NCBI RefSeq assembly: GCF_964213995.1
Contig: NC_135828.1
Location: 30,566,001 to 30,630,000 of the forward strand
Source of the DNA: Mustelus asterias
Taxonomy: Eukaryota
Length of the DNA stretch: 64,000 nt
Direction of reading: 5' to 3'
Below are positions 27,101 through 60,646 of this stretch, piece after piece (position 1 is the first letter of the stretch; each line of letters opens with the position of its first letter). The notes below the pieces were generated by a model. It ran no database searches. It saw nothing but the letters and a program-made list of their open reading frames with translations, and was not told the DNA's origin. Both the position numbers and the translations under genes were made by a program.

Positions 27101-28344
27101 ATGTCCAAGTCCAGCATATCCTCCCACCTCTTTGATTTGTGTTCCATCTATTAAGGCAACCACACCACATGTCTTATTGACCACTTTATCTGCATCTCCA
27201 GTCACATCCCTTGATCGGTTGTGCATTTTCTCGTGTAAGCTGGAGAAGTGCAATGTTCAGAGACTTAAATCTTAAAGGTAGCCATTTGCTGAAGTTACAA
27301 ATTACAAGAATTGATTACTTAAATAATTATTTTAATTCACATTTGAAATGATGATTCACAAGAGATCGAAGGAGATTCCCACTACTTTATCCTTCAAACT
27401 TAAAAAATACATTTTGTGAAACATGTCAAAGATAGGAAGGGAGCACCTCAACTGGTGAGGACAATTGAATAAACAAAGTCAACTCAACTAACTAACTACA
27501 GATGACTAAATGGTTCAAGTGAAAAAGAAGTTTCAACGATTTAATAAATGGTGTCCCACACATCTATTTTCTTCAAAGTTAAGTGCTTTCCAAGAATCCA
27601 AAGTTGCAGAACGATGCAGAAGAAACGGAAAATGACAACATATCAACACTGTACATATATTTCAATCTTCTCCTCCTTCTTTCCGATCTTTTTTTTTGTG
27701 ACCATGATGTTGAGGATGTCCTGCTGCTTGATCCCTGTTCCAGCATTGCTAATCAAAGTGCTTTGCCAATTTTCCCGAAAACTGGAAGTGAGAGAAAAAA
27801 TGAGGGACAAATATTGAGTATCTTGTGGATTATTGCTTTGATATTTGCTCTTCAAAGAGCTTCTAATCAAAAGACAGATGCTTGTGATATGAATATTTAT
27901 CGATATAGATTAGAAATAGATCTTTATATGCACAAATGTATGATTGCTTGCAACACACCCTCAAGGAGTGATGAGGAGGGAGTTTCTTTATGTCCCAACA
28001 TATTGTGAAATGGAAGTTGTTACCTGAAAGAATGATGGCAGCAGAATGACTGGTAAAGGTCAAGTAGAAAAGGGGAATGCATGCAGCTCATCAAGTGCAA
28101 ATATTGCAAGAAAATCAAACAGGGGAGGAGGGAAAGCCAAAGGTCAGACGATACAGAACGGTGCACTTCAAATCCTGGTGTCTCGGTTCAGAAGATTCAA
28201 ACCGAGAAAAAGCTTGCAATGGCCCCCACTTGCCAAGTCATGTTGATCTATTCAGCCCACGTAAGGTACGACTCCCACCAACAAGACCTATCTGGAAAAA
28301 CTCTTCCACACAGGACATCAACGCAAACACCAACTAATTTAATT

Positions 28345-29915
28345 ATTTTGAAATTTGATTGGGTTTTTTCAACGGGTAACCAAGAAGGTAAATGAGGGCA
28401 CTGCAGTTGATGTTGTCGACATGGGCTTTAGCAAGGCTTTTGACATGATACCCAATGGTAGGTTGTTGCATAAGGTTGAATCTCAAGGGATCCAGGGTGA
28501 GGTAGCTAACTGGATATAAAATTGGCTTCTTGACAGAAGTCATGATGTGGAGATGCCAGCGTTGGACTGGGGTAAGCACAGTAAGAAGTCTCACAACACC
28601 AGGTTAAAGTCCAACAGGTTTATTTGGTAGCAAATACCATAAGCTTTCGGAGCACAGCTCCTTCGTCAGATGGAGTGGATATCTGTTCTCCAACAGTGCT
28701 CTGACACAGAATCTGTGCACTGTTGGAGAACAGATATCCACTCCATCTGACGAAGGAGCTGTGCTCCGAAAGGTTATGGTATTTGCTACCAAATAAACCT
28801 GTTGGACTATAACCTGGTGTTGTGAGACTTCTTACTGTTCTTGACAGAAGCCAGAGGGTGGTTGCAGAGGGATGCTTTTCAAACTGGACGCCTGTGACCA
28901 GCGGTGTGCCTCAGGGATCAGTGCTGGGTCCGCTGTTATTTGTCATTTATATTCACGATATGGATGAGAATATAGGAGGCATGGTTAGTAAGTTTGCAGA
29001 TGACACCAGGATTGGTGGCAGAGTGGACAGCGAAGAAGGTTATCTCGGATTGCCACGGGATCTTGATCAATTGCGCCAATGGACTCACGAATGGCAGATG
29101 GAGTTTAATTTAGATGAATGCAACGTGATGCATCTTGGTAGATTGAACCAGGGCAGGACTTACTCAGTTAATGATAGGGCGTTGGGAATCGTTAAAGAAC
29201 AAAGAGATCTCGGGGTACATTTTCATAGCTCCCTGAAAGTGGAGTCACAGGTGGACAGAGTGGTGAAGAAGGCAATCACATGCTTGGTTTCGTTGGTCAG
29301 AACCATGAATACAGGAGTTGGGACGTCTTGCTGAAGTTGTACAAGACATTGGTAAGGCTACACTTGGAATACTGTGTACTGTGTACAGTTCTGGTCACTG
29401 AAAGGATATTATTAAACTAGAAAGACTGCAGAAAAGATTTACTAGGATGCTACCGGGAATTGATGGTTTGAGTTATAAGGAGAGGCTGGATCGACTGGGA
29501 CTTTTTTCTCTGGAGCATAGAAGGCTGAGGGGTGATCTTACAGAGGTCTATGAAATAATGAGGGGTACAGATCAGCTAGATCGTCAATATCTTTTTCCAA
29601 AGGTGGGGGAGTGTAAAACTGGAGAGCATAGGTTTAAGGTGAGAGGGGAGAGATACAAAGGTGTTCAGAGGGGGATGTTTTCCACACAGAGTGTGTTAAG
29701 TGTCTGGAACAGGCTGCCAGAGGTATTAGTAAAGGCGGGTACAATTTAGTCTTCTAAAAAGCATTTTGACAGTTACACAGGTAAGTTGGGTATAGAGGGA
29801 TATCGGCCAAATACGGGCAATTGGGACTAGCTTAGGGGTTTAAAAAAGAGGTGCCATGGACAAGTTGGGCCGAAGGGTCTGTTTCCATGCTGTAAACCTC
29901 TATGACTCTATGACA
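28345..29915 (+). mobile_element. 5'-truncated decayed CR1 interrupted by a Penelope-derived palindrome
   Basis: PVTSGVPQGSVLGP, FADD, RDLGVH motifs; ctctatgactctatga tail. Confidence 0.92.
28540..28837. mobile_element. Non-autonomous palindromic Penelope-like element, copy 2, with hammerhead-like motifs at 28637-28673 (-) and 28743-28779 (+)
   Basis: Arms ~28579-28699 and 28717-28837; 13-bp TSD ttcttgacagaag at 28527-28539 and 28838-28850; near identical to copy 1. Confidence 0.9.
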
Positions 29916-31276
29916 ACCTGGACCAATGAATGGGAATCTTTGGACTTGACAAACAATTACCTGGTTTCAAATCCAACCCAGCTGTCTGGTTGCAACCTTC
30001 CTTGGAAAGAGTGGTGCAGCCTCAACAGTTTCAAGAGTGGCCATCGCGCCTGCTTGGCAGATAGGGCATTAGTGCCAGCCCACTATGTGTTTCAGGGAAA
30101 GAGAAAACTTTGCACCATATCATAGAGGAGCGTCCAATCACAGACTCAATGGAGGCCTACCGCACTCAAGACGGCAACACCATCAGAAAGAACTGGGCTT
30201 GGGGACTTTTGATCGGTTAAATAAAATAAAGATCAGATATATGAATGAGTAGTCCTTGCCTTCCGAAACCTGTCTGATCTCTTCTCCAGGTCCCATTCCA
30301 TCATATGCGTGCTAGCCATTTGTTTTTCTCTCTCTTTCCATCTGTGTCTTATTAATCTGCTTTCTTCCTAATTCTCCATTCTTACACGTCTCCACACTCT
30401 TCCCTATATCTCGAGCTTATATTGTCTTCCTCGATCTGCCACACTCACCTCATCTATATCTCTTCCGTTTGTTGTTTCTCACATTCACTCTCTCTCCACA
30501 CGTACTTTAATTCCTCCGTGTTAACCTCTATCCACCTCTCATCGTGTTCCCTCAGTGTCCCGCACATTTCATTAATTTCCCTCACCCCTCAGTCCCTCCT
30601 TTTGTTAATGTGTTCGATCACTGTTTGACTCCCCTCAATCTGGCTCTCGCTGCCCCGAACTCTTACAGTTGCAGCATCTAACACCTAATCGCTCTATTCT
30701 CACCCTGCGTCTTGTAATTCTGTCCCTAGTTCCTTATCTGTGTCTGACTATATGATTTTCCATGTCACTTGATTTCTCTCGTCCTGTTTCTGGTCATTTA
30801 TCTTTGTTTACATGGCTATCTGTTTATTTCATTCTTATTCTCTCACTGCCATTCTCTCTCTGCCTTTGACTTGTTCCATCTGTCATTCTAACTTTATTTT
30901 TTATCTTCCTGTTCCAATTGTCTAAATCTGTCTCTTTCTGTCCTTCTCTTCCTCTGCTGTCCTTCTCGTACACTTTCCCTTCCTTCTCTTTGTTTCTATC
31001 TCCATTTCCTCCACCGCCCCCCCCCCCCCGCCCCCACACACACACACCCTATCCTCTCTATCTCTCTGTCTCTATGTAGGATCTCTATTCAAATATCCAA
31101 TCGTCCCCGTGATGTAATTGCACTGCGGATTTGCGTGCTGGCGTCACCTGGATTGTATGTGATATATTCAGAAACGTCTGATGAAAATGTCGCAATGTTT
31201 CTCAAAGTGTGCTGAGTGTTGAAGTCTGGGAGGAAGGAATGGAGTTGAAATTTCACCTGATGATGGCATTGATTCT

Positions 31277-31401
31277 CTACTTAACCCATCCCTTCATCTT
31301 CAGCACTAAGATGGTAATGACAGTCGTATACAGGATACTCTTCGAGATGAGTAACATGTAGGTAGTTTTGGCCATAACTTGTTGCTTCTGTATCCGCTCC
31401 A
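31277..31401 (-). CDS. TRBC: TCR beta-like constant region exon 3 (connecting peptide, transmembrane and, by read-through, cytoplasmic tail)
   Basis: Acceptor ttttccttctgactttcag|TG; translates (V)ERIQKQQVMAKTTYMLLISKSILYTTVITILVLKMKGWVK*, with the antigen-receptor TM pattern YxxLLxKSxLY including the CD3-binding Lys; phase matches the hinge exon. Not in the ORF track; 3' end uncertain. Confidence 0.9.
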
Positions 31402-33487
31402 CTGAAAGTCAGAAGGAAAAACAATACAACTAAACAAGCAGTTGTCTGAACAGGCAGCCTCCTGCAAGTAGACACAGTCACAACAACAACCCACATTCAC
31501 GTGCCAATTTGGTCCAAGTACTTTACAAAAATACAAAACAGACATAAATGTAGAACGAGCTGAACAGGGGAAATTTAGGATTGGTTTTGAATGATTGAGA
31601 AGTTGAAGGGGCCCTCAAGAAGAACAGGAAGGTGGATAAATTCTGTGGGCGTATGTGTGCAGATTAGTTGGGAAGCAGTGATAATCCCAAAACTTGGGTA
31701 TAGTTACCTGAATTCACGTAAAACCGTTAAGAGCAATTTTAATTAAAGCAATTGTAAGTCAGTTGGACCCTATAACCTTTTCCGATATTTATTAAGATCA
31801 TTTTTCATCTATTCCGTCAGCTTCATTTTCCCCACACGATCCCAATATGCCTTAATTCCATTTTTCCAAAATGTTTCACTCTCCATTTTATATATTCTGA
31901 ACGAACGAGCAAGCAGTTCTGTTTTGTGTAGAGAATTGTAAAGATTCATCTAACACATTTGAGTCAAAGTATTTCATATAAACTCAGTCCTATTTTTTTT
32001 TCTTTTGCTCTCCCTAATCTGATCTGCTATTCAACTGTTATGAACCGTGTTATAATCAGCGACTCTCTCGAGACGGTCAGCTGCCCAGGTGTGTATGACT
32101 TGGTGGGAAACCAGTTTGTACTAATGGTGGAAAAATCCTGAGGAGGGATATTTGTGAAAGGCATCAAAGAGTTAGAAGTGATCCAGAGTAAAACATGATG
32201 GTGCTACGCATAAGGTCTTCAGCTCTGTGCACAGCATGGATAAACTGGGGCTGTTCACCTTGAGCAGGATAAAGGTATATCAACTGGATACATTCACAAT
32301 TATGAAGGTTTTCGGAAAAACTGAGTGGGAAGTTAACATTTGGGATGTCAATGGGCTCGGTCACTAAAGGAAGCAGAATTCAGGAACCCAGTGAAAGGAT
32401 GGAAGTTGAGGGGGTGGGGGGGAGGGGGGTGGTTGGGGGTGGGAGTGGGGGGGGGGGGGCGGAGGGGGCGGGGGGGCGGAGGGGGCGGGCGTTGTTTTGT
32501 TTTGCTGGCAGGGTTACTATTATCTGTAAAAAACTATTGAAGATTGAGTTGGTTTCAGCTTACACCGGGCGTTCTAAATGGGAATAGGACACAAACGGTT
32601 GAAGACACAATGTCAACGTTATAGGGAGAAGCTCGGATATGAAACAATGTATTGCCCAACTCTCTACAAAAAACTGGAGCAAACTCCGCCTTTTCTGAGT
32701 ACTGCTTAATCCCATCAGTCATGCCATGCATTTCATTCAATGCAACATTAATGATGATGAATCAAGTGCATGTGTACAGAAGGAGACTATTCAGCCTGTT
32801 AACCCTGTTCCACCATTCACTAAGAATGACAAAATAACAGGTCAATGGCTCTAGTTTCCAGCTACAATACATATCCACTTACAACCTTGGCTAATCAATG
32901 ACTATCAATCTCAGATATAGATATGACAATCGATCCAGCTTTTGTTGGCACTAGTGGAATGGAGTTCCAAGCCTTTGCAGTGCATTGTCTGCAGCAGAAT
33001 TTCCTAAGTCGGCCCTGAAATGTTCATCTCTATTTTTTAGACAATGCCCCTAGCTCTAGACATCCAAGTTATCCCAAACTATCTTCTGTTTCCCTGAATA
33101 TCTTGAAATCTTTGATTCTATGGATTCTATGTATTCTCCTCGATTCAAGCGAATGCAACCCCAGTTTATGTATTCTCGCCTCACAATGTAACCATTGCTG
33201 CCCAGTTATCACCCAGTTAACCTGTTACGCTCCATCCAAGGCCAGCATATTCTTCCTGACATGTGATGTCCAGAACGGAGCACAGAGTAGCAAGTGTTCT
33301 GTAATGAGATCACATGATTTTTGAACTTCTGCATTTTGCTGATTGGATAAAAAAGTCCAGCATGCGTTTGGCATAATTAATGTTGCTTTTGCACTTTCCC
33401 GGACCATCCTAATAATATATGTCCATTTTGTGTGAGAAAAAGACAACTACGTACAGGGAAAACAAATAGAAAACTTAAAGTTCTCAC

Positions 33488-33505
33488 CGTTGCCTTCACA
33501 TAGAC
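33488..33505 (-). CDS. TRBC: TCR beta-like constant region exon 2 (18-nt hinge exon with interchain Cys)
   Basis: tttattacag|GTCTATGTGAAGGCAACG|gtgaga; phase 1-1; encodes (G)LCEGN; same length and Cys position as mammalian TRBC exon 2. Confidence 0.88.
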
Positions 33506-33824
33506 CTGTAATAAATAAATTGAAAAATCGATCACATTAGTTGCTTATCAGTACAGCTTTCACATCACACAAACATGCTGCTACGATAGACGCCATTTCA
33601 CGGAGATAATTGGTTAAAAAAGATTGACAGCGCAGAAAATAGTGAACGCGATCACGATTCATCTCTCGGGGAAATCAACATAAATAGGAAGAAACCTTGC
33701 TAGATGCAGTTTAAGGACAAAATTGTAAGGATACTGACGGGAAGAATTAAGAATCGTAATGTAATGCTTGATGGTGCAGTTTTGAAGGGGTTAGAAAGAA
33801 TTGGTGTGCACACAGTTAGCATGA

Positions 33825-34778
33825 TTGGTGCTGGGTCCACTTTTATTTGTCGTTTATGTTAATGATTCCGATGAGAATATAGGAGACGTGGTTCGTAAGT
33901 TTGCAGCTGACACCAAGATTCGTGGCATAGTGGACAGTGAAGAAGGTTATCTCGGATTGCAACGGGATCTTGATCAATTGGGCCGGCGGGCTGACGAATG
34001 GCAGATGGAGTGTAATTTAGATAAATGCAACGTGATGCATTTTGGCAGATTGAACCAGGGCATGACTTACTCAGTTAATTGTAGGGTTTGGGAAGAGTTA
34101 CAGAGCAAAGAGATCTCGGGGTACAGGTTAATAGCTCCTTGAAAATGGACAGAGTCGTGAAAAAGGCATTCAGTTTCATTTATCAGAACATTGAATACAG
34201 GAGTTGGGACGTCTTGTTGAAGCTTTACAAGACATTGATAAGGCTACACTTGGAATACTGTGCACAGTTCTGGTGACCCTATTATAGAAAGGATATTATT
34301 AAACTAGAAAGAGTGCAGGAGAGATTTGCAAGGATGCTACCGGGTCTTAATGGTTTGAGTTATAAGGAGAGGCTGGAGAGACTGAGACTTTTTTCTCTGG
34401 AGTGTAGAAGGGTGACCTTATAGAGGTCTATAAAATAATGAGGGGCATAGATCAGCTAGATAGTCAACATACTTCCCCAAAGGTAGGGGAATCTAAAACT
34501 CGAGGGCATAGGTCGAAGGTGAGAGTCAGAGATACAAAAGTTGTCCAGAGGGGCATTTGTTTTCTCACAGAGTGTCTGGAACAAGCTGTCAGAGGTAGTA
34601 GTAGAGGTTGGAACAATTTTGTCTTTTAAAAAGCGTTTAGACAGTTACATGGCTAAAATGGGTATACAGAGATATGGGCCAAATATGGGCAACTGGGACT
34701 AGCTTACGGGTTTAAAATAGGCAAATGGACAAGTTGGGCCGAAGGGCCTGTTTCCATGCTGTAAAACTCTATGACTGT
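33825..34778 (+). mobile_element. 5'-truncated decayed CR1 in a TRBC intron
   Basis: VLGPLLFVVYVND, FAAD, HLEYCAQFW; ctctatga tail; same family as 28345-29915. Confidence 0.9.
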
Positions 34779-36877
34779 GAAAGCAACACATTTAATCCTG
34801 ATTGGAAACAGAGCAAGGTGCGATAGGGGGTGAGGGTGGAGGTGAGTGTTGGCGGTGGGGGGGTGGGATGTGGTTGGAGGCGGAGGGCATGGGGGGGGCT
34901 TCTTTGCAGTGAATGGCTAGGAATTGGTGTGCAGTCCCTGGGAGGGCTGCATTATATGATTCAATATTAGCTTCCAAATGACAATTGTATAAATAATTCC
35001 AAGAGGAAAGATTTGCAGGAATAGTGGTGAGGATTTGGAGAGTTGCACTGTGCATTTGAAAGATTTGGCGTAGACACAATGTGCTGCACTATTTGAGAAA
35101 ATTATGGAGTTATATTATGTCTCCAAATTCGGCATTTTGTTTTGTAACTTCCATGGGTATCGACTATCAATGCATGATCTAACAGATTAAAAAGGAACAC
35201 ATGAGTGAATGACTTGATCGAGTTGATTGAAGGACGTCTTCAACATGAGTGTCAACAGTCCATAATAATAGGACGTAATTTGAAAATTGGAGGCAGGCTG
35301 TTGTGGGCACATATTATGAAGCACATTACTAACGCTGCTTTATGAAAGCCTTGTTTTCCAAAGTACTGTTGGGTCTGGGGGTGAATTGAAAATGTCAGGT
35401 CTCTGGTATGGACAAGTCTGACTGGCCGGTCGGGAACAGGAAAATCAGTGATCGCTATGGAACCAAGGCGAGGAAGGACGACTCATCCTTATATTAAATG
35501 GTCGGAGAGGTGAGAGGAGTTGAAGGCCAACTCAAGTTCTTATCTCATTTATGAAGCATCAAACTGTAAATTCCTCTTTCCCTGTACTTCCTTATCCTCA
35601 ATAACTCCTTCTCCGTCTCTTATTATCAGATCATGTTTTATAGATTGGCTTTCTATTTCCCCTGATGTGAACTGGCATTGTATTCTCATTTTCTTGTTTT
35701 GCCACCCGCTCTCCTTCTCAAAATCCTGCCTCGGGTAATGAAACCAATGCTGCATTCAGTCCTCAGCAAGGTAATATATACTGATAGTATCTCTTTGTAA
35801 CATTTCCTAATTCTTTGCTGCATCTGGAGGTGAGTGATGTACAAGGGTAACGAGCTCCCGCTGGATACCAACTGAACAAATTCTACAATGTTGACACCAT
35901 TCTGATACAAATTCTGGCCGGTCGGGAGTCCAAACAAGCGACAGCATCTCATCTTCACCCTTCTGGACCCGCATGGCACCAATGCGCAGCTGAAATCCTG
36001 AATGAATGAGCACTGTTGCAGAAGGGTGTGACTAATGAATAGAACAAATCCATCCCTTTCTCTGTGTGCTGTTCAGCAGAAGTTTGATTCTGGCCCACTT
36101 TCCCAGGCACCTGATGTTATACGATACAACAGTACTTTGCGCCCGATTTGAAACTCTCCACTGGTGCCCCTTTGAGGCAGGAATGTGGTTACTGTAATGT
36201 AAGTACATATCAGCTTGTTCATCTCCTCCTCCTTACAACCTCATGCCCTTGGAATTTACTTACAATTTCAGTAAAAAAATGCAGTTAAATTCTGAAAGAC
36301 TGTTTGATTCTGTCTCCATGACAGTCTGAGGTTCATTCCTCCCAATACATTCACCACTTACACAGGAAAAATGAAGTGTAGTTATTTCGATGGACTGAAA
36401 TACCTACTTTCTGCTCTTATGGCTTATGGGCTCATAGTCCCGGGGTGTGGCATTCACTTTGATAATTGAGCAATACACATTCGTGCACCCACCTCCTGCC
36501 AGTAGTATCATTATCTCACAGTTTGCCATGTCAAATCTGCTTAAGAGTTGGAAGACATTTCTCTCAGCCTTCTTTCTACAAGTAGACCAAATACATCTCA
36601 TCCTGTTTGCTGTTCCTAACTGAGAAGTCTCTGATCCTTGAACAATTTTGGTAAATATTTACCTCTTTAGTAGCTTCGCATATGTCTGAATTGCTGCACA
36701 ATATTCCAGTTGAGGCCGCACAAGTGGTTTTTGTCTCCCCCCACCCCGCCCCCCACAACCCCCCCCCCCCCCTCCCCCGCCCCGCCCCCCTCCACACACA
36801 CATACACATACACTTTTTTCAGGTCGGGTAAACTAAAAGACCGATCAGGGCTGATTCCAGAATGTGAAGACACCCAC

Positions 36878-37213
36878 CTGTCTTACTTCTAATCTTCTCC
36901 TCGGCATGCACCTCCTTCCCTTCTTTACTGTAATGCGTTACTTTGCACGAAAACTCCTGGCGTCCCCAATCCTCCCGGGACACAGTCACCCGGCTGCTCA
37001 CACTGTAGACGTTGAGCTGGGCCTTCACCGGCCTGTCCGTCACCACATACTTCTCCTCGACCTCTTGGCCGTCCGCGCTCCAGTAGAATTTCACATAGTC
37101 CGGAAAGAAGTGACTGGCCAGGCACACTATGGTAACTTTCCTGTGATCCCGGATCTCTTCTTCCGATGGCTCAAAAATCGTCACCTTGGGGTGCTTAACC
37201 TCCTGACCTGCCT
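36878..37213 (-). CDS. TRBC: TCR beta-like constant region exon 1 (C1-set Ig domain)
   Basis: cattccag|AG GCA...; (E)AGQEVKHPKVTIFEPSEEEIRDHRKVTIVCLASHFFPDYVKFYW...YSVSSRVTVSREDW...FSCKVTHY...KIRSKT|gtgggt. TRBC hallmarks FEPSxxEI, VCLAxxFxPD, YxxSSR, W and both Cys are present; frame is open. Confidence 0.95.
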
Positions 37214-37479
37214 CTGGAATGTGTGGAGGACACGGGGAAGAAGGGAGGTGCAACAAACGAAATTTGTTAACAGATGGAACAGATGGAGAGTAACGAAGAT
37301 GATGTTAAACAGGGTTATTTCTCTCTCACCGTTATTCTGGTTGGCAATTGACATTTGTTCACCTGATTATTTGACCTTGTGTTGCATCACACTAAACCTT
37401 GATTCCGCTGCAAACGAGGGGCATTCCATTATCAGATTGTCCCGGAGTGTGTAAAGACATAATTTGAGAAATCGAGCAG

Positions 37480-37930
37480 AACATACACTCAAATACTCAC
37501 TCACACCCACACGCGTATACACACACAGGCACACATATACTCACACACTAAGTCTCACCCAAGCTGTCAAACTGACTCTCATACACAATTATATTCACAC
37601 AGTCACACACACATACACACACTCGCACAAACTCTCGCACACAATCATATCCACATACTCACACATTCAGTCATGCACACACACATTTATGCAGATGCAC
37701 GCTCACAGGCAGACAGACCCGCTCACAGGCAGACAGACGCGCAGGCGAGCATATATGCACACATATACACATACAGACTCAGACATGCATTCTCACACAT
37801 GCAGACATAAACGCTCATAATCACACACATGCTCAGATGCACATACACTCTCATTCATGCGCACACACACATACAATCACACACGTAATTCATACACATG
37901 CACACACACACATACATATACACACACACA
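37480..37930. repeat. Degenerate (CA)n-rich microsatellite
   Basis: Extended cacacata/cacact runs. Confidence 0.85.
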
Positions 37931-38397
37931 AAGTGAAAACATTCAAAACCCTATTTATGAATCCAAATAGAGCATATGGTATTGAACATGGCAATGGTTT
38001 AGTATTTTACTGGACAACAATGATTACAGCTCATTCGTAAAATATATCATCATAAAACATTCCAAAGTTGCTCAAGATACCGATGCTATAAACGTGACAC
38101 AATATATTCCAATATTACCACAAATCCAGTTCGTTTCCTCTCAGCCTCATTTTCCAGCTACTGCCCCAGTCCCTCTCCACATTTTCACATTAATTTTTTA
38201 CTCGCCTCTGTTCCCTTGCAATCTCAAGCCATTTTTTCCTTTCTTCTCCCCTTCTTCCAACCATTTCCCTTGAAACCAACCAATCTTCTTTTTATCTATA
38301 TTCGCACCTCGTTGGCCTTCTCATGTTTTGATTAGAACCTTCTACCCAGCAGATTTCAATCACATTCACTCCCTCTCTTTCTCTGTACATCAGCTGT

Positions 38398-40891
38398 TAA
38401 GACCATAAGACCATAAGACATAGGAGCGGAAGTAAGGCCATTCGGCCCACCGAGCCCACTCCACCATTCAATCATGGTTGATTTCAACTCCATTTACCCG
38501 CTCTCTCCCCATAGCCCTTAATTCCTCGAGAAATCAAGAATTTATCAATTTCTGTCTTGAAGACGCTCAACGTCTTGGCCTCCACAGCCCTCTGTGGCAA
38601 TGAATTCCACAGACCCACCACTCTCTGGCTGAAGAAATTTCTCCTCATCTCTGTTCTAAAGTGACTCCCTTTTATTCTAAGGCTGTGCCCCCGCGTCCTA
38701 GTCTCCCCTGTTAATGGAAACAACTTCCCTACGTCCATCCTATCTAAGCCGTTCATTATCTTGTAAGTTTCTATCAGATCTCCCCTCAACCTCCTAAACT
38801 CCAATGAATATAATCCCACGATCCTCAGACGTTCATCGTATGTCAGGCCTACCATTCCTGGGATCATCCGTGTGAATCTCCGCTGGACCCGCTCCAGTGC
38901 CAGTATGTCCTTCCTGAGGTGTGGGGCCCAAAATTGCTCACAGTACTCCAAATGGGGCCTAACCAGTGCTTTATAAAGCCTCAGAAGTACATCCCTGCTT
39001 TTGTATTCCAAGCCTCTTGAGATAAATGACAACATTACATTTGCTTTCTTAATTACGGACTCAACCTGCAAGTTTACCTTTAGAGAATCCTGGACTAGGA
39101 CTCCCAAGTCCCTTTGCACTTTAGCATTATGAATTTTGTCACCGTTTAGAAAATAGTCCATGCCGCTATTCTTTTTTCCAAAGTGTACGACCTCGCACTT
39201 GCCCACGTTGAATTTCATCAGCCACTTCTTGGACCACTCTCCTAAACTGTCTAAATCTTTCTGCAGCCTCCCCACCTCCTCAATAGTACCTGCCCCTCCA
39301 CCTATCTTTGTATCATCGGCAAACGTGGCCAGAATGCTCCCAGTCCCGTCATCTAGATCGTTAATATATAAAGAGAACAGCTGTGGCCCCAACACTGAAC
39401 CCTGCGGGACACCACTTGTCACCGGTTGCCATTCTGAGAAAGAACCTTTTATCCCAACTCTCTGCCTTCTGTCTGACAGCCAATCGTCAATCCATGTTAG
39501 TACCTTGCCTCGAATACCATGGGCCCTTATTTTACTCAGCAGTCTCCCGTGAGGCACCTTGTCAAAGGCCTTTTGGAAGTCAAGATAGATAACATCCATT
39601 GGCTCTCCTTGTCTAACCTATTTGTTATCTCTTCAAAGAACTCTAACAGGTTTGTCAGGCACGACCTCCCCTTACTAAATCCATGCTGACTTGTCCTAAT
39701 CCGACCCTGCACTTCCAAGAATTTAGAAATCTCATCCTTAATGATGGATTCTAGAATTTTGCCAACAACTGAGGTTAGGCTAATTGGCCTATAATTTTCC
39801 ATCTTTTTTCTTGTTCCCTTCTTGAACAGTGGGGTTACAACAGCAATTTTCCAGTCCTCTGGGACTTTCCCTGACTCCAGTGACTTTTGAAAGATCATAA
39901 CTAACGCCTCCACTATTTCTTCAGCTATCTCCTTTAGAACTCTAGGATGTAGCCCATCTGGGCCCGGAGATTTACCAATTTTCAGACCTTTTAGTTTCTC
40001 TAGCACTTTCTCCTTTGTGATGGCAACCATATTCAACTCTGCCCCCTGACTTTCCTGAATTGTTGGGATATTACTCATGTCTTCTACTGTGAAGACTGAC
40101 GCAAAGTACTTATTAAGTTCCTCAGCTATTTCCTTGTCTCCCATCACTAGATTACCAGCGTCATTTTGGAGCGGCCCAATGTCTACTTTTGCCTCCCGTT
40201 TGTTTTTAATGTATTTAAAGAAACTTTTACTATCATTCCTAATGTTACTGGCTAGCCTACCTTCATATTTGATCCTCTCCTTCCTTATTTCTCTCTTTGT
40301 TATCCTCTGTTTGTTTTTATAGCCTTCCCAATCTTCTGACTTCCCACTACTCTTTGCCACATTATAGGCTCTCTCTTTTGCCTTGATGCATTCCCTGACT
40401 TCCTTTGTCAGCCATGGCTGCCTAATCCCCCCTCTGATAACCTTTCTTTTGTTTGGGATGAACCTCTGCACTGTGTCCTCAATTACTCCCAGAAACTCCT
40501 GCCATTGCTGTTCTACTGTCTTTCCCACTAGGCTCTGCTTCCAGTCGATTTTTGTCAGTTCCTCCCTCATGCGCCTGTAATTATCTTTATTTAACTGTAG
40601 AACCTTCACATCTGATTCTGCCTTCCTTCTTTCAAATTGCAGACTGAATTCTACCATATTATGATCACTGCTTCCTAAGTGTTCCCTTACTTTAAGATAT
40701 TTTATCACGTCTGGCTCATTACATAACACTAAGTCCAGAATAGCCTGTTCCCTCGTGGGTTCCATCACAAGCTGTTCCAAAAAGCCATCCTGTAAACATT
40801 CAATGAATTCCCTTTCTTTGGGTCCACTGGCAACATTATTTACCCAGTCCACCTGCATATTGAAATCCCCCATGATCACTGTGACCTTGCC
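38398..40891 (-). mobile_element. Young 5'-truncated CR1 in the J-C intron, same orientation as the TCR gene
   Basis: ORFs 39536..40879 and 38484..39599 joined by a single frameshift; (cttatggt)n tail. Confidence 0.95.
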
Positions 40892-41162
40892 AAATCTCCC
40901 CCGCTTCCATGTGTTCTATTTCCACTTCTGAATTTATTTTCCTTCCCCATCTTCATCCTTGTCTCTGTTTCTTGCAATTTACCAGTGTCTGCCACTGTTT
41001 ATCTCAAAACCTCCCTCTCTTTCCTATTTCTCTCCCTCTCTTTGACTCTTTCCCTCTTTATCAACAACAATCTATCTCCAATCGGCAATCAAGGAAAGAA
41101 AAACATTCTACCCATGGCCAATGTTTCAAAGATTAAAAATAACTGCCGTTTGGAGTACTCAC

Positions 41163-41208
41163 CTAAAACAGTCAGCCTGGTCCCTGCTCCGAAGTGCTGT
41201 TCAGCATT
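41163..41208 (-). CDS. TRBJ: TCR beta-like J gene segment
   Basis: Reverse strand AATGCTGAACAGCACTTCGGAGCAGGGACCAGGCTGACTGTTTTAG|gtgagt = NAEQHFGAGTRLTVL; FGxG motif; phase-1 donor in frame with the C exon. Confidence 0.95.
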
Positions 41209-41236
41209 CACAGTGTTATTGAGCCAGACGCAAACT
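41209..41236 (-). promoter_or_regulatory. 12-spacer recombination signal sequence of the J segment
   Basis: On +: heptamer CACAGTG 41209-41215 (consensus), 12-nt spacer ttattgagccag, nonamer ACGCAAACT 41228-41236 (6/9 to ACAAAAACC). Confidence 0.92.
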
Positions 41237-43729
41237 AGTTGCTGCTCGAAACCATTCCTAGAGAGGAGTCACCGACCCAGAGCGGCTGGTTCCTGCACAC
41301 TTACATTCGGAATCAGAGGCTTGGATGTTTCCCAATAGAGGCTGGTAGCAGGAATCAGTGTGAAGCTCAGAATCCTCTGTAACACTATCATGAGGGTAGG
41401 TGCTGGAGATCATTTTTTAATGGGCAGTTCTTGTAGCGAGGGCACCAGCAAATGAGGCACGGTGGAAGTTGATTGTCCCCACGGTGATACATCTGAGTTC
41501 AAAAAATGCACCTGGGTTCAGAGATCACTGCATTTTATATCTGATGCAAAGAGATTTTACGAACCCTTCATTTCACCAAAGTTTGGATCTGCCCCTAATA
41601 TTTCACGGTCAGTGTCTTGTTCTGTTTTTGTCTCTGCCTATTTTTCTTTCAATCTCTGTCTTATCACAGCTTATCTGTTCACCTCCCCTGTAACTCTTAT
41701 ATCCCTGTATCATGCATCTTCTGATGATTTAAATCACTGCCTCGCCCTCTCTTTCCCTATTTCTGTATTTCCCATACATGTCTCCTATGTTCTCTGTCTG
41801 AAACTCTATCCCTATTTTCAATCTCTCCCTTTATGCCTTGGTATCACCCTGTCTCTCCCAGTGTCCTTATCTTCCCGTCCCCCTCTACCTCTTTCTGTCT
41901 ATATGCCCTTCTGTCTTCCTAGCTATGACTTCCTCTGTTTGCCCATCTGTGGTTGCTCTCCCTAACTCTAAATCTCCACTACTGATTTTGTGGAACTATG
42001 CAAATTTATTTCTTAAATTTGTTTCTCCATCTCCTTTTCTGCAAGGGCTTCCCAACTCTCTCTTGAGTTCTGCCTTTCTCACACTTCATCTGTACCTCAA
42101 AGAATGTCGTGTTTCCTCCGGACTTCCCTTGGTGTATAATACTTGCTGTGCAACATTTCACTGAAGCGCCAATATGAATAAACAACAACATAAATGAATA
42201 ACAAGGCAAATACTGAGCCAAAGGGGCAGATAGGCCAGTCTTTATCAGTTCAACGTCCATATACATCGGAATTCTTAGTGTTAGAAAGAGCAGCCAGCTG
42301 TAAGAGCACAACTCAAATACAAATATCCATGGTTGGTGTGAATGTCGATGTCTCAGAGCGATGAACCTACGTCATGCTGATCCTATGTAACAAACAAGCA
42401 GCAAACAGAAGAAAGAGGGAGCGTCTATAAAGGAGAGAAGCAATGTGAGGAGGAACTGTGAGGGTGAATGGAGCCAGTGGCATCGGCTGAAACAAGAGAG
42501 TTTTCATTTGTTGGCCAACACTCCCGCTTGGTGGCGGCGTGGAGGAATGACCGAGGATCCCAGAATCACAGACCTGTGACATGGCAGAGGGAAATAATTG
42601 AAAGCAGCGTGTCTGCACTGGCACTTCAAGTGATCAATCCGAACCGAGACCCCCCCCCCACCCAACACACACCCCCCACAGCTCCCCTCCCCCCCCCCCC
42701 GCCTCCCTCCTCCGTTTCCCCTTAAAATTGCACTTCTCTGCTTGATAGGTAGCAATCTTATTCCCTCTGGAATATTTAACCTAAAACTGCCTCCAACACA
42801 TTCTGATACAGGTCATTCCGATTCCGGTTCCAGACCAATCATGTCCCCATCTCATATGTTGTCAAGCACTTTAAATCTCTGTCCTCTCCTTTTCCATCCC
42901 CAAAAAACATTACCCTCCTCAAGACAGTATGTTACTAATTGAAGCATCTCCAAGAAGTGGAACTGGGGCTTTCCCTTAATGAATCCCTGCTGACTTCACG
43001 TAATGAACGCACATCAGTCAAAGTCCTGCGAGGGTTCTCCAGAATTGTTTTTTTTTATCACAATCACCAATGGGCATGAGGCGGAAAAGTTGAGTTGAGG
43101 ATGATCCTATCAGAGCAGTCACGGTCACATTTAATGATGGAGTGGTGTTGATGCACCGAATGGTCTACCTTTGCACCTACATCTTATCAGCTTACAGTTT
43201 GTAACGGGCAGTTGTGTTCAGAACTGGGAAAATTATGATAAGAAATACAAACAGGCGGTTAGAATAGAGGTGGTTAGCTGGAGAAATGATGAGATGCAGA
43301 TCAACGGGGAACAATCATTTTTACGTATGTGACTCGGAAGAAAAATGGGGCGATGGAAGTAACATTTCAAAGTGGAGAGATAACTAAATTAATTAGTACA
43401 CGTCAAAAGCCAACTGCACCGGGGTAATGTCAATGCGAAATAAATCGTATAATTGGAGACACTAGGAAGAAAAGTGATAGAGGTAGCCGACTTCCGAACT
43501 GCACCAAGTCGCAGCAAAAGTTGTTGGGCAGAAAGTGCTGGCCCAGCCAGTGATACGTCTGATCAGAAGCAAATTCCTGTCTGGGATGGAAAAAAACTCC
43601 TCCGCACTGCGACTAAAATGGACTGGGATGGGAACTTGAAATGCTGTGACTGGACATGGAGGAAGTAGATTGGCATAATAGGCACTGAGAAATAATGTTG
43701 GGAGTGAGTCATTGAATTGTAAGAACACA

Positions 43730-49370: not shown

Positions 49371-50744
49371 ACTGGGGACTTTTGTTTGCCTAGGCCTCTT
49401 ATGAGTTTAACATGTCTAACCATGCAACCGCATGCATTAGAAGCACGAGTGGACTAATCAGCCATTTTGATATTGTTCTACCATCCAATAAGATCATGGT
49501 TGTCCTACCTCGCCTGCCCCGAATTACAATTCACCCCATGTTTGCCAAGAATCTCATTATTGCTGCCATTGAAATTATCAAAAAGATACACTTCCACTGC
49601 CTAAGACTTAAATGCTATATTCGTCAAATCCTGCAAAGTATAGTCATAAAGAACCTGCTTTAATCACTTGTCTGCATTTTTTCACCATTAAAAACGGCAG
49701 CTACAACGTGCAAAAAGCCCTGAGAGGTTCAAACTAACATTTCCAATTTCATTATTTCATGATCACTATGGATTCAATGACATCTCTGACATAACATCAG
49801 ATCTGGTGTTGGGAATATTGACTGTATTATTTGTTATTTCATTATTGTGATCTGAACTGTAATGTTGAATCACATTTCTTTGTTCGAGCACATCTGGGAA
49901 TTAACCTGCTGCAGTAATCTGTTTATTCATTTATTCAAGAACAATAAAGGTACTGCAACTTCAGTATCTCAGTGGGATACCCACATGATAGAAATTAAAG
50001 GCCCTCGGAATGCATTGCCTCATAATACAGAAAGATCACTGACAGAAGGATGGGGCAGACTGCATCAGCGAGAAGATGCATCGACCAATTCCACAAGTGC
50101 AGAAATATTACTACGCAGTGCTCGCCATCCTTGGTGTTCACGGTACGTAAATATAATCTTTGAACTTGTGTGGAAGCACGTCAAAGCTTCTCTCTGTTTC
50201 TGCTCTTATTATTGTTATACGCTGATTTCGTGGCGATTGGAACACATACACCCGAACACTCAGACCGTTTCACTCAGAGCGAGCAGGTCACACTCTCTGG
50301 TGTTCATTTAATTTTATTTCCTAAGTGAATGCTTCCATTGCATCTCATGCCCGTGCTCAATCGTTACATTTGCTGCACTGTCCTGGAGCCTGGGCCATAT
50401 AATCATTTCTCGATCTGTCAATTGATATTTGTACAAAGGGATCAGTCAATGTCAAATTAATTGCATGTAAACCACTAAGTAGAGAGAAGCGCCTGGCCCC
50501 ATTGAGCATGTACTCCTGGGAGTATCAGTCCTTCTAAAGTTGTACTGAACGTAATTCACTAACTGCAATCATTAAAACAGTTATGTTTTGAAATAATAAT
50601 GCGAGATCTCAACTCCATTGATCTAAAGTAAAGTTTATTTATTAGTCACAAGTAAGGCTGACATTAGCACTGCAATTAAGTTACTGTCAAATACCCTGAG
50701 TCGCCACACTCCAGCGCCTGTTGCGGTCAATGTGCCTAACCAGT

Positions 50745-59470: not shown

Positions 59471-59776
59471 TGTACGCTTCAGTTATTCCACATTCGCTGA
59501 ACCCTTCTCTTTATTTAATTGCCCCATTGAAGATGCACCAATATCAATTTTGTTGCTGAATCACATCCGGTCGTTATCCAATCACACACCTTTCATTTGC
59601 ATCCCCAACGCCCCTCTACCCCCCCCCCCCCACTATCCCCCCACCCTCCCACCTCACCCTTATACCGCACATTTCAGTTACTCTATTATTGCTTTCAAAT
59701 TCATCATGAAACATTACCCTGATCTGAGAAAACCTATTTCAGACTGAAAAGTTGAAACACAATGTCTAGTTTACAG

Positions 59777-60646
59777 TGAACCTCGTGGCGTTTGTGATCC
59801 TGTCAAGGGGAAACTGCGGCCTCTCCACCTGCACCACTCGGTGGATCTAGTGGTCATTATCACCGAGGTTCTATTATATCACTATTTACTTTTGTGGCGT
59901 TTCCTCTGTGTAGTGTTATTGTTCTGCATGCTTCGTGCAGCCAGGGACTGCTCAGTCTGGTTCACAGTTACTTTCTCCTTTTGTCGGTGTGTGGCCATTT
60001 GCTGCCAGCATCTAAAAACAAAAGGTTGTTCCGATGAAACTGCGGCTGTGGTTCTAGCAACAACATGCAGCCTGCTCTGTTACCAAAACATCCCTTTCTA
60101 TTTCCATTATGAACCTTGGAAGATAATGAAAAATGCTCCATGGTACTGCAAGGCAAAGAAAATTAATCCCACCCTGCTTGGGTGGGATTAGACTGGCTGG
60201 ATACTGTTTTAGTACCATTGTTCCCATTCGTCTAAATGATATTCGTCTCAACTCCTTGATGGTCAGACATATTTTAGTGGCCCGTCAAGTTCGGAAACGT
60301 CTGAAGGATCAGAGCAAGAGAGAGAATCGCAGTGACCCAGAGATGGAGAGCAAAAGGAAGTCCGTGGTTTTGCTCTTCGCCATATTGGGTAGCTTCATAT
60401 TTATGTGCTTATCGTATGGTATTAACTTCCTGTAATATACTACTGCAGGAACAAAACCCGCCGACTACAAGGGATTTTTCTATAATTTTTTAAAATGTTG
60501 GATTTATGCTAGAGGTTTGAAATTGCTGCACAAACACATTTATTTATGGGGTCACTCAATCCAAGTTCAGAGAGCAGATCATGCACTCTGTGAAATATCT
60601 GGTTCCATCAATTATTGAATTAATTAATAAACAGAAAAAAAACTGA
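59777..60646 (+). pseudogene. Class A GPCR pseudogene, GPR139/GPR142-like family expanded in sharks (main coding exon)
   Basis: ttacag|(V)NLVAFVILSRGNCGLSTCTTR, DLVVIITEV, DCSVWFTVTFS..R.VAICCQ, LNSLMVRHIL, DPEMESKRKSVVLLFAILGSFI, NCCTNTFIYGVTQSKFREQ; deletions, frameshifts and in-frame stops. Confidence 0.88.

Follow-up and report, generated by a model that had tools for sequence, protein, structure and literature searches.

No living group with T-cell receptors is older than the sharks, whose beta chain is generally taken as one type encoded at one locus. In the catshark Scyliorhinus canicula, two TCR-beta copies were reportedly found by Pettinello et al. in 2017 (Dev Comp Immunol). In mammals, a second D-J-C unit behind the first (TRBC1 and TRBC2) offers the locus further rearrangement. 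PMC2806336 describes these two cassettes as near-identical, lying on the same strand and carrying 6-7 J each. Amniotes possess an inverted TRBV gene downstream of TRBC (human TRBV30, mouse TRBV31, opossum TRBV28), which is termed an ancient arrangement in PMC2275272. A second beta-derived chain is TCR epsilon (TRE) of squamates. According to PMC11754216 and 10.1101/2023.09.04.556186, its V, D and J are few in number, its transmembrane segment has one Lys, its predicted partner is alpha and its V genes are sister to the inverted TRBV. The genome of the shark Mustelus asterias contains three canonical beta loci together with a deeply diverged, conserved and spliced second isotype that has one D and one J. 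No inverted one-J TRB cassette of sharks was found described in the openly available literature searched.

This second unit lies in a stretch of 64,000 nucleotides (contig NC_135828.1, positions 30,566,001 to 30,630,000), hereafter the window, numbered from its first letter. The features of the unit are as follows.

27749..27781, minus strand: former cytoplasmic-tail exon, now 3' UTR; the exon extends to at least 27600
31257..31401, minus strand: connecting peptide and transmembrane (TM) exon encoding one Lys; stop codon 31277-31279, donor in use at 31257
33488..33505, minus strand: 18-nt hinge exon with the interchain Cys; its length fits the gap in contig X4/17
36878..37213, minus strand: constant Ig C1-set exon ("C2", divergent beta-type chain), covered by the spliced contig X4/17
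38399..40875, no strand assigned: LINE insertion within the J-C intron, not present in the second copy on contig C73
41163..41208, minus strand: sole J segment, with FGAGT motif and GT donor
41209..41236, minus strand: 12-RSS of J, heptamer perfect, 3 mismatches in the nonamer
41426..41464, minus strand: 3' recombination signal of D (heptamer, 23-bp spacer, nonamer), 1 mismatch in the heptamer and 2 in the nonamer
41465..41479, minus strand: D segment, 15-nt core starting with GGGACA, with a 12-RSS 5' and a 23-RSS 3'
41480..41507, minus strand: 5' recombination signal of D (nonamer, 12-bp spacer, heptamer), 1 mismatch in the heptamer and 3 in the nonamer
59748..60435, plus strand: decayed GPCR-like reading frames, a bystander between D and the inverted V genes, below Pfam cut-offs

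The original prediction had described a unit with a single J and neither D nor V. The D had been missed: it stands 256 bp upstream of J with its 12/23 signals, is open in all three frames and shares its GGGACA start with the three canonical TRBD of the genome, without their G-run. Under a strict paired-RSS rule this D was found once in the window, compared to 0 of 200 resamples preserving dinucleotide frequencies. The single J was borne out, with one J-like motif carrying an in-register donor in the 4257 bp separating D and C and one in the 1777 bp of the C73 copy; a relaxed scan farther upstream returned 3 matches, none J-like and all without RSS. The J and V types of the cassette recur as read-through in gene models of the catshark orthologues: models P0001-P0003 carry a near-identical J, and the S. 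torazame model P0001 is matched by read-through translation across the D stretch. The read-through of the non-coding D-J stretch reaches only about 42-46%, with stops, while C2 and its S. canicula orthologue share 69.4%.

The J with its 12-RSS and the C-Ig, hinge and TM exons had been predicted to splice in frame, and they do: their borders are AG/GT and they join as one open frame of 174 aa. The last exon had been overlooked; its old tail portion is identical to the catshark tail at 9/9 residues. Since the ancestral TM donor is apparently lost, the cytoplasmic tail is truncated. Read contigs were compared over the constant exons, J and D lying outside the compared stretch. Contig X4/17 (run X4; 1297 nt) runs from C across a gap the size of the hinge into TM and on to the last exon, with 0 mismatches in the three listed pieces, the hinge length being matched by 15 unaligned and 3 overlapping letters. 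In contig X9/23 (run X9, from a different study and with a different organism label), TM is spliced to the last exon. Contigs of run X2 were unspliced and covered introns, and run X20 gave nothing on the cassette exons. None of the sequencing runs listed as containing the sequence was on record as RNA, which tells neither for nor against expression. By contigs X4/17 and X9/23, the cassette is transcribed and spliced. The 333 letters of X4/17 past the C exon fit either J and a V or J and germline DNA reaching just beyond D; no rearranged V-D-J junction to C2 was seen in this comparison of the constant exons.

The unit is inverted and stands on the 3' side of a canonical TRB locus, 31.5 kb away from it. 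This locus, just left of the window, comprises a V cluster, a D, 7 J motifs and a C. The predicted lack of V genes holds within the window; beyond it, two inverted TRBV stand 42 and 50 kb upstream of the cassette (window-equivalent positions 83659 and 91230). The first, V1, is intact on C69, with an in-frame leader, V exon and 23-RSS, and groups in the V tree with forward TRBV of C69 and C22 (SH-aLRT 96). The second, V2, is TRBV30-like and broken, being frameshifted on both copies (C69 and C73). Both fall in TRBV families, and their best TCR matches in the PDB are beta chains. The V with 23-RSS, D between 12- and 23-RSS and J with 12-RSS reproduce the TRB layout, and the unit is a complete V-D-J-C cassette; a D-less orphan unit is ruled out by the D and by the V genes beyond the window. 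The GPCR pseudogene proposed upstream is there as decayed GPCR-like frames, with Pfam support that stays below threshold (E 0.018 and 0.067). The synteny suggested with EPHB6 and MOXD2 was not recovered: no match to the Eph ligand-binding family lies on C69 or C24 or nearer than 8 Mb to the C22 locus, and C69, C22 and C24 all lack a match to the copper monooxygenase family.

We propose, with a probability of about 0.7, that canonical TRB is followed, in inverted orientation, by a second cassette of TCR-beta type that is intact, transcribed and spliced and has a single D, a single J and a divergent C, that this cassette likely undergoes 12/23 V(D)J recombination and that it likely yields a distinct low-diversity beta chain, which would pair with TCR-alpha and CD3. 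Rearrangement and pairing of the C2 chain with TCR-alpha are what we infer from sequence. D-to-J joining would delete 256 bp and the intact inverted V would likewise join D-J by deletion, while the forward V cluster could reach the cassette D-J, and the inverted V the canonical D, by inversion. Because joining of a forward V to the canonical D would spare the cassette, a second try on the same chromosome would be possible. Given the Cys of the hinge and the lone Lys of the TM, the chain would be expected to form a disulphide-linked heterodimer with alpha. If C2 rearranges and pairs with alpha, sharks would have a second alpha-beta-like receptor of narrow repertoire, and C2 would be a candidate marker of an innate-like T-cell subset.

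C2 is not the only TRBC of the genome, since the count of paralogs gave three canonical-type genes besides it (on C69, C22 and C24). At the C22 and C24 TRB loci, decayed inverted copies of the C2 TM exon occupy the same spot (scores 61 and 62 versus shuffled maxima of 37 and 32, respectively). The canonical TM exon did not match these relics, and on C22 and C24 the matches to other parts of the cassette (C2 Ig exon, hinge, J, D, tail exon) did not rise clearly above those of shuffled sequence. The occurrence of inverted TM-exon relics at two further TRB loci argues that the arrangement is old. The cassette itself could also be a fading relic, giving sterile (unrearranged) spliced transcripts and no receptor in this lineage, with inverted V genes that are mere donors to the canonical D-J-C. 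Apart from the TM relic, the cassette has been lost at two paralogous loci; moreover V2 is broken on both copies and V1 is frameshifted on C73, where the C exon has a Tyr-to-Cys change, the ancestral TM donor is apparently gone, and a germline D-J-C transcript would account for the length of the unread 5' part of X4/17. We nevertheless consider this explanation unlikely: D, J, C, hinge and TM are free of stops and frameshifts on both copies, RSS and splice sites are retained, V1 is intact on C69, and conservation relative to catsharks equals that of canonical TRBC (69.4% between C2 and its S. canicula orthologue, 70.2% between the canonical TRBC of this genome and of S. canicula).

A pairing of C69 and C73 as X and Y chromosomes was unsupported. 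Matches to the CNPY family and to Eph sit on C72, no Hox-like cluster was listed for either contig among 81 homeodomain matches (150 of 400 candidates), and the DNA left of the C73 copy matches C73 alone. In a term search of two shark sex-chromosome papers, TCR was unmentioned.

The C2 Ig exon is 68-72% identical to the S. torazame and S. canicula orthologues and 31.6% identical to the neighbouring TRBC on C69. S. canicula has both a canonical C (P0005) and C2 (P0003), hence the C2 chain may already be one of the two catshark copies of 2017. Protein searches (63 and 34 candidates; 7992 scored; best 150 of 9372) gave no C2-type protein beyond the two Scyliorhinus species among 166 proteins and no short C-only orthologue among 34 candidates. 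For the C trees we chose 36 named or representative proteins from 80 extracted C and TM domains, with holocephalan, coelacanth, lungfish, TRA, TRD and TRE rows left out. Canonical shark and ray C formed their own clade (99/99) with C2 outside, so that C2 is not orthologous to the TCR beta known from nurse and horn sharks. This position and the low identity to the neighbour agree with the original prediction of a one-J paralogous beta-type chain distinct from canonical TRB.

We also examined how deep the separation goes. In the best tree C2 fell outside shark and bony-vertebrate TRBC (91/49), a placement that may be an artefact of the long stem leading to C2 (about 1.0 changes per site). A younger TRBC duplicate, restricted to sharks or to galeomorphs, that evolved fast after an inverted duplication would reach this deep position by long-branch attraction. 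AU tests rejected C2 as sister to carcharhiniform canonical C (p 0.001) or to its C69 neighbour (p 0.006), and the rejection was borderline (p 0.048) for C2 as sister to the canonical C of all sharks to the exclusion of rays; a grouping with all elasmobranch canonical C was not rejected (p 0.29). The distribution of C2, so far seen only in Carcharhiniformes within the search scope given above, the long stem and these last two tests speak for a younger origin. On the other hand, the rate within the C2 group is not raised, canonical shark and ray C keep to a clade of their own, and in identity C2 resembles tetrapod TRBC (33-39%) as much as it does shark canonical C (29-40%). In addition the relics place the cassette before the split of C69 from C22 and C24, and the canonical C of C69 groups with nurse and whale shark C (96/86). 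We hold a younger duplicate to be unlikely. C2 may instead be a very old duplicate, and under our proposal the duplication would be older than the spread of TRB to three chromosomes of this genome and probably older than the shark-ray split.

A gamma origin of the constant region, that is a TRG C behind TRB-type V, D and J whose chain would pair with TCR-delta, is very improbable. All TRB rows including C2 formed a clade against TRG and IgL (95/80, with one long TRG row), C2 is only 26% identical to the TRG Ig domain compared to 29-40% for shark TRBC, and its alignment with shark TRBC extends to the hinge, in both length and Cys, and to the tail exon. The TRG of this genome lies elsewhere, on C7 (V, 3 J, no D found); in TRG, V joins J directly without a D, which the cassette has. 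The AU test did not reject C2 with the one long TRG row (p 0.11-0.12), and a single TM Lys is common to beta and gamma according to PMC11754216. The Cys hinge, the TM with a single Lys and no Arg, and the tail exon are together TRB features. The top Foldseek matches listed for C2 are TCR structures, and a protein atlas search gave generic TCR-beta constant clusters. When the C exon or alignment A1 was searched by sequence against the PDB, multi-domain antibodies dominated the results.

With the canonical TCR beta of elasmobranchs (P0006, P0016-P0020; nurse and horn shark), the cassette shares the V(23)-(12)D(23)-(12)J order, the GGGACA start of D and V genes of TRBV families, and C2 has the same C1-set exon, 18-nt Cys hinge, one-Lys TM and homologous tail exon. 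It differs in its identity of only 29-40%, its inversion, its one J (canonical loci have 7-8), its D without G-run, the lack of a Cys before the TM Lys and the N-glycosylation sequon, absent in 3/3 C2 rows and present in 13 of the 14 rows for canonical C of sharks and rays. As in mammalian TRBC1/TRBC2, a second D-J-C lies behind the first, but the shark cassette lies in the opposite orientation, carries a single J and has diverged from its neighbour as far as tetrapod TRBC has. TRE resembles it as a second beta-type chain with a single TM Lys and predicted alpha pairing, and differs in lying on another chromosome than TRB and in being reported from squamates only; compared by eye in the published supplementary alignment, TRE C showed no special likeness to C2.

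For the shark inverted V genes of CAWS type, the best TCR matches by single domain are to the beta chains of 5xov and Mel5. The Mel5 chain uses TRBV30, and orthology to TRBV30 rests on such best matches because the V tree has no mammalian TRBV30 row. It is possible, though doubtful, that the ancestral jawed-vertebrate TRB consisted of two facing cassettes (V-D-J-C and an inverted C-J-D-V) encoding two beta-type chains, that Carcharhiniform sharks retain the second as a nearly invariant isotype, that the lone inverted TRBV30 seen in mammals and birds was orphaned when that cassette was lost and that squamate TCR epsilon may descend from this end of the locus. The position of C2 outside shark and bony-vertebrate TRBC fits such an ancestor without showing it. 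A cassette behind TRBC with TRBV30-like genes at its head offers a testable origin for the unexplained inverted 3' V of amniote TRB, which stands alone in amniotes, whereas in Mustelus asterias the inverted V heads its own D-J-C.

The J segment, the constant-domain exon, the hinge and the transmembrane (TM) exon are intact, as in the original prediction: their borders are AG/GT throughout, and once spliced they form a single open frame of 174 residues containing a Pfam C1-set domain. The single J was also borne out. The claimed absence of a D segment, on the other hand, proved wrong, as a D flanked by two recombination signals (RSS) lies 256 bp upstream of the J; a strict paired-RSS rule returned this one site in the window, compared to 0 in 200 resamples with dinucleotide frequencies kept. 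The inverted D-J-C cassette comprises, in window coordinates:

41465-41479, minus strand: D segment of 15 nt beginning GGGACA, 12-RSS on the 5' side and 23-RSS on the 3' side
41163-41208, minus strand: J segment, 12-RSS at 41209-41236
36878-37213, minus strand: C1-set exon
33488-33505, minus strand: 18-nt hinge exon with a cysteine
31401 (start), minus strand: TM exon, stop codon at 31277-31279
27781 (beginning), minus strand: last exon

Its constant region, C2, lacks a cysteine before the TM lysine, and N-glycosylation sequons occur in 0 of 3 C2 rows, compared with 13 of the 14 rows for canonical C of sharks and rays.

Contigs from 4 of the 23 listed sequencing runs were aligned to window positions 27600-37400. 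Contig X4/17 (1297 nt) joins 36876-37213, a 15-letter gap, 31257-31402 and 27600-27781 with 0 mismatches in these pieces; the gap, together with three overlapping letters, fits the hinge exon. X9/23, from another study and under another organism label, joins the 31257-31402 piece to the last exon. Since the donor used, at 31257, comes 3' of the stop codon, the protein has a short cytoplasmic tail (KMKGWVK) and the old tail exon, although identical to catshark at 9 of 9 residues, is untranslated here. We infer from the catshark proteins that the ancestral TM-exon donor was lost. X4/17 extends 333 letters past the C exon, a length that fits J plus V as well as J plus germline DNA to just beyond the D, and V(D)J rearrangement therefore stays a predicted step.

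We consider it unlikely that the cassette is a fading relic giving sterile transcripts. The C exon matches three NCBI gene models of Scyliorhinus torazame and S. canicula at 68-72%; the reading of each model runs through the same J, and taken together the models also take in the same D region and V genes of both types. The canonical C exons of this genome match records labelled Mustelus, which places the host among the carcharhiniform sharks. C2 is 69.4% identical to its S. canicula orthologue, a level comparable to that of canonical TRBC between these two lineages (70.2%), while the non-coding D-J read-through matches catshark far less (about 42-46%, with stops), which we read as purifying selection on C2. 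No C2-type protein from another order was present among the 166 proteins compared, which came from searches with capped candidate lists.

A 534 kb stretch of C69, the contig holding the window (C69:30566001-30630000), was read around it. The canonical TRB locus lies to the left, tail to tail with the cassette and 31.5 kb apart, and two inverted V genes lie to the right:

C69 30.42-30.51 Mb, plus strand: about 14 canonical V genes or fragments, 23-RSS called for 9
C69, plus strand: canonical D with G-run, 7 J motifs, and C at 30561904
right of the window, 42 kb from the cassette D, minus strand: V1, with leader in frame, V exon and 23-RSS
right of the window, about 50 kb from the cassette D, minus strand: V2, with two frameshifts

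No further V gene was found on C69 up to 30.83 Mb. V1 clusters with forward TRBV of C69 and of contig C22 and with one catshark V (SH-aLRT 96). V2 falls in the V family ending in CAWS; among single-domain TCR entries of PDB, this family is best matched by the 5xov and Mel5 beta chains, which we take to use TRBV30. In human TRB, the V gene lying inverted at the 3' end is TRBV30 (PMC2275272). Decayed GPCR-like frames were seen in the DNA that separates the cassette D from the inverted V genes, at window 59748-60435 and around 49995-50138, and a similar piece is caught between V and D in the S. torazame model P0001. Reading frames that by eye resemble retroviral gag, pol and env directly precede the canonical V cluster on its left (C69:30395398-30405800), and a tandem-repeat array of about 30 kb lies left of the TRB locus (30.33-30.36 Mb).

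V(D)J joining is governed by the 12/23 rule. Under this rule the cassette D could join the J by deletion, as could V1 the resulting D-J; the forward canonical V cluster might reach the cassette D-J by inversion, and V1 the canonical D likewise. A chain of beta type would result, carrying a single J, a D that lacks the usual G-run and possibly one dominant V, features for which a narrow repertoire is predicted. Judging from sequence, we propose with a probability of about 0.7 that the cassette is a beta-type chain gene working by ordinary 12/23 rearrangement, narrow in repertoire and pairing with alpha and CD3. Such pairing is predicted from the hinge cysteine and single TM lysine, following the rule given in PMC11754216.

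Trees were built from 44 C-hinge-TM rows; 7 rows of the first tree consisted of the Ig domain alone, as did 6 of the second, where the TCR gamma (TRG) TM was added. C2 groups with its catshark orthologues (100/99-100), outside the clade of canonical shark and ray C (86/99 in the first tree, 99/99 in the second), in agreement with the suggestion of a beta-like paralog instead of canonical shark TRB; bony-vertebrate TRB forms a third clade in both trees. On the first tree, AU tests rejected a grouping of C2 with the canonical C of carcharhiniforms (p 0.001) or with its C69 neighbour TRBC (p 0.006); placing C2 together with the canonical C of all sharks gave a borderline rejection (p 0.048, against p 0.385 in the control lacking C2). 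A young, fast-evolving duplicate, which differs from our main reading in age and overlaps it on function, appears quite improbable. C2 was not rejected with all elasmobranch C (p 0.29) or bony-vertebrate TRB (p 0.30), and we are unsure of its deep position because its stem branch is long. The second tree united all TRB, C2 included, against TRG and Ig light chains (95/80), with C2 as first branch within TRB (91/49, not starred). C2 with TRG was not rejected either (p 0.11 and 0.12 in the first and second trees); we hold a gamma-derived C region to be very improbable. The AlphaFold model has a pLDDT of 81, and the Foldseek matches listed are TCR structures in every row.

Within the genome, 150 of 468 candidate matches to the C exon were scored. 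Among these, the exon matched itself, a 96% copy on contig C73, Ig light chains (up to 42%) and the canonical-type TRBC of C69, C22 and C24 (34-40%), so that three canonical-type paralogs were counted besides C2. This one shark genome has three TRB loci, on the same contigs, two of them being:

C22 53.01-53.17 Mb: complete canonical-type TRB locus with D, J motifs and C, followed downstream by many V in inverted orientation
C24 52.55-52.83 Mb: complete canonical-type TRB locus with D, J motifs and C, followed downstream by many V in inverted orientation

Both have a D and a C, with V genes to either side; J motifs number 7 on C22 and 8 on C24, and CAWS-type V genes show a large tandem expansion on C24. 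In the interval from TRBC to the first inverted V, both contain an inverted, frameshifted copy of the cassette TM exon with its acceptor (scores 61 and 62; 30 shuffles per locus reached at most 37 and 32). The canonical TM exon has no match at these sites, and no other part of C2 stands clearly above shuffles on C22 or C24. Because of these relics, we infer that the inverted cassette is older than the spread of TRB to three chromosomes and was later lost from two of them, where the inverted V genes would have stayed behind on their own, the situation seen in amniotes.

C73 (7.8 Mb) carries, starting at C73:7056912, an about 98% repeat of C69 that begins at the last exon of the cassette and extends at least 100 kb to the right. 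In this copy D, J and C keep open frames, but both V genes are broken; LINE insertions differ from C69, the canonical TRB locus is absent, and the DNA left of the copy matches C73 itself only. The repeat may be a segmental duplication, sex-linked or supernumerary sequence. A TRG-type locus with V, 3 J, C and TM exon is located on C7 (140.71-140.74 Mb), where no D segment was found. Contig C72 bears a CNPY-family gene and a divergent Eph receptor (3.3-4.5 Mb); since PMC12318234 lists Cnpy2 among the pseudoautosomal genes of the shark X, C72 may be the X chromosome.

In the literature searched, which covered few subscription journals, we came across no description of an inverted cassette with one D and one J, nor one of the TM relics or of a shark with three TRB loci. 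Pettinello et al. 2017 reportedly described two TCR-beta copies in catshark; the cassette chain could well be among these, and would then be less novel. C2 and the beta chain of nurse shark and horn shark are not orthologues. On sequence grounds, the cassette nevertheless has most of the attributes of TRB and would work like a TCR beta cassette. The C region of squamate TCR epsilon shows no special likeness to C2 by eye (supplementary figure 4 of PMC11754216). Protein record P0098, labelled Sphenodon punctatus TRBV6.1 by NCBI, has a constant region matching Tiliqua rugosa TRBC in the same figure, and its organism label is therefore possibly wrong. TCR epsilon, with V genes that form the sister group of inverted TRBV (PMC11754216; 10.1101/2023.09.04.556186), offers a functional parallel to the cassette.
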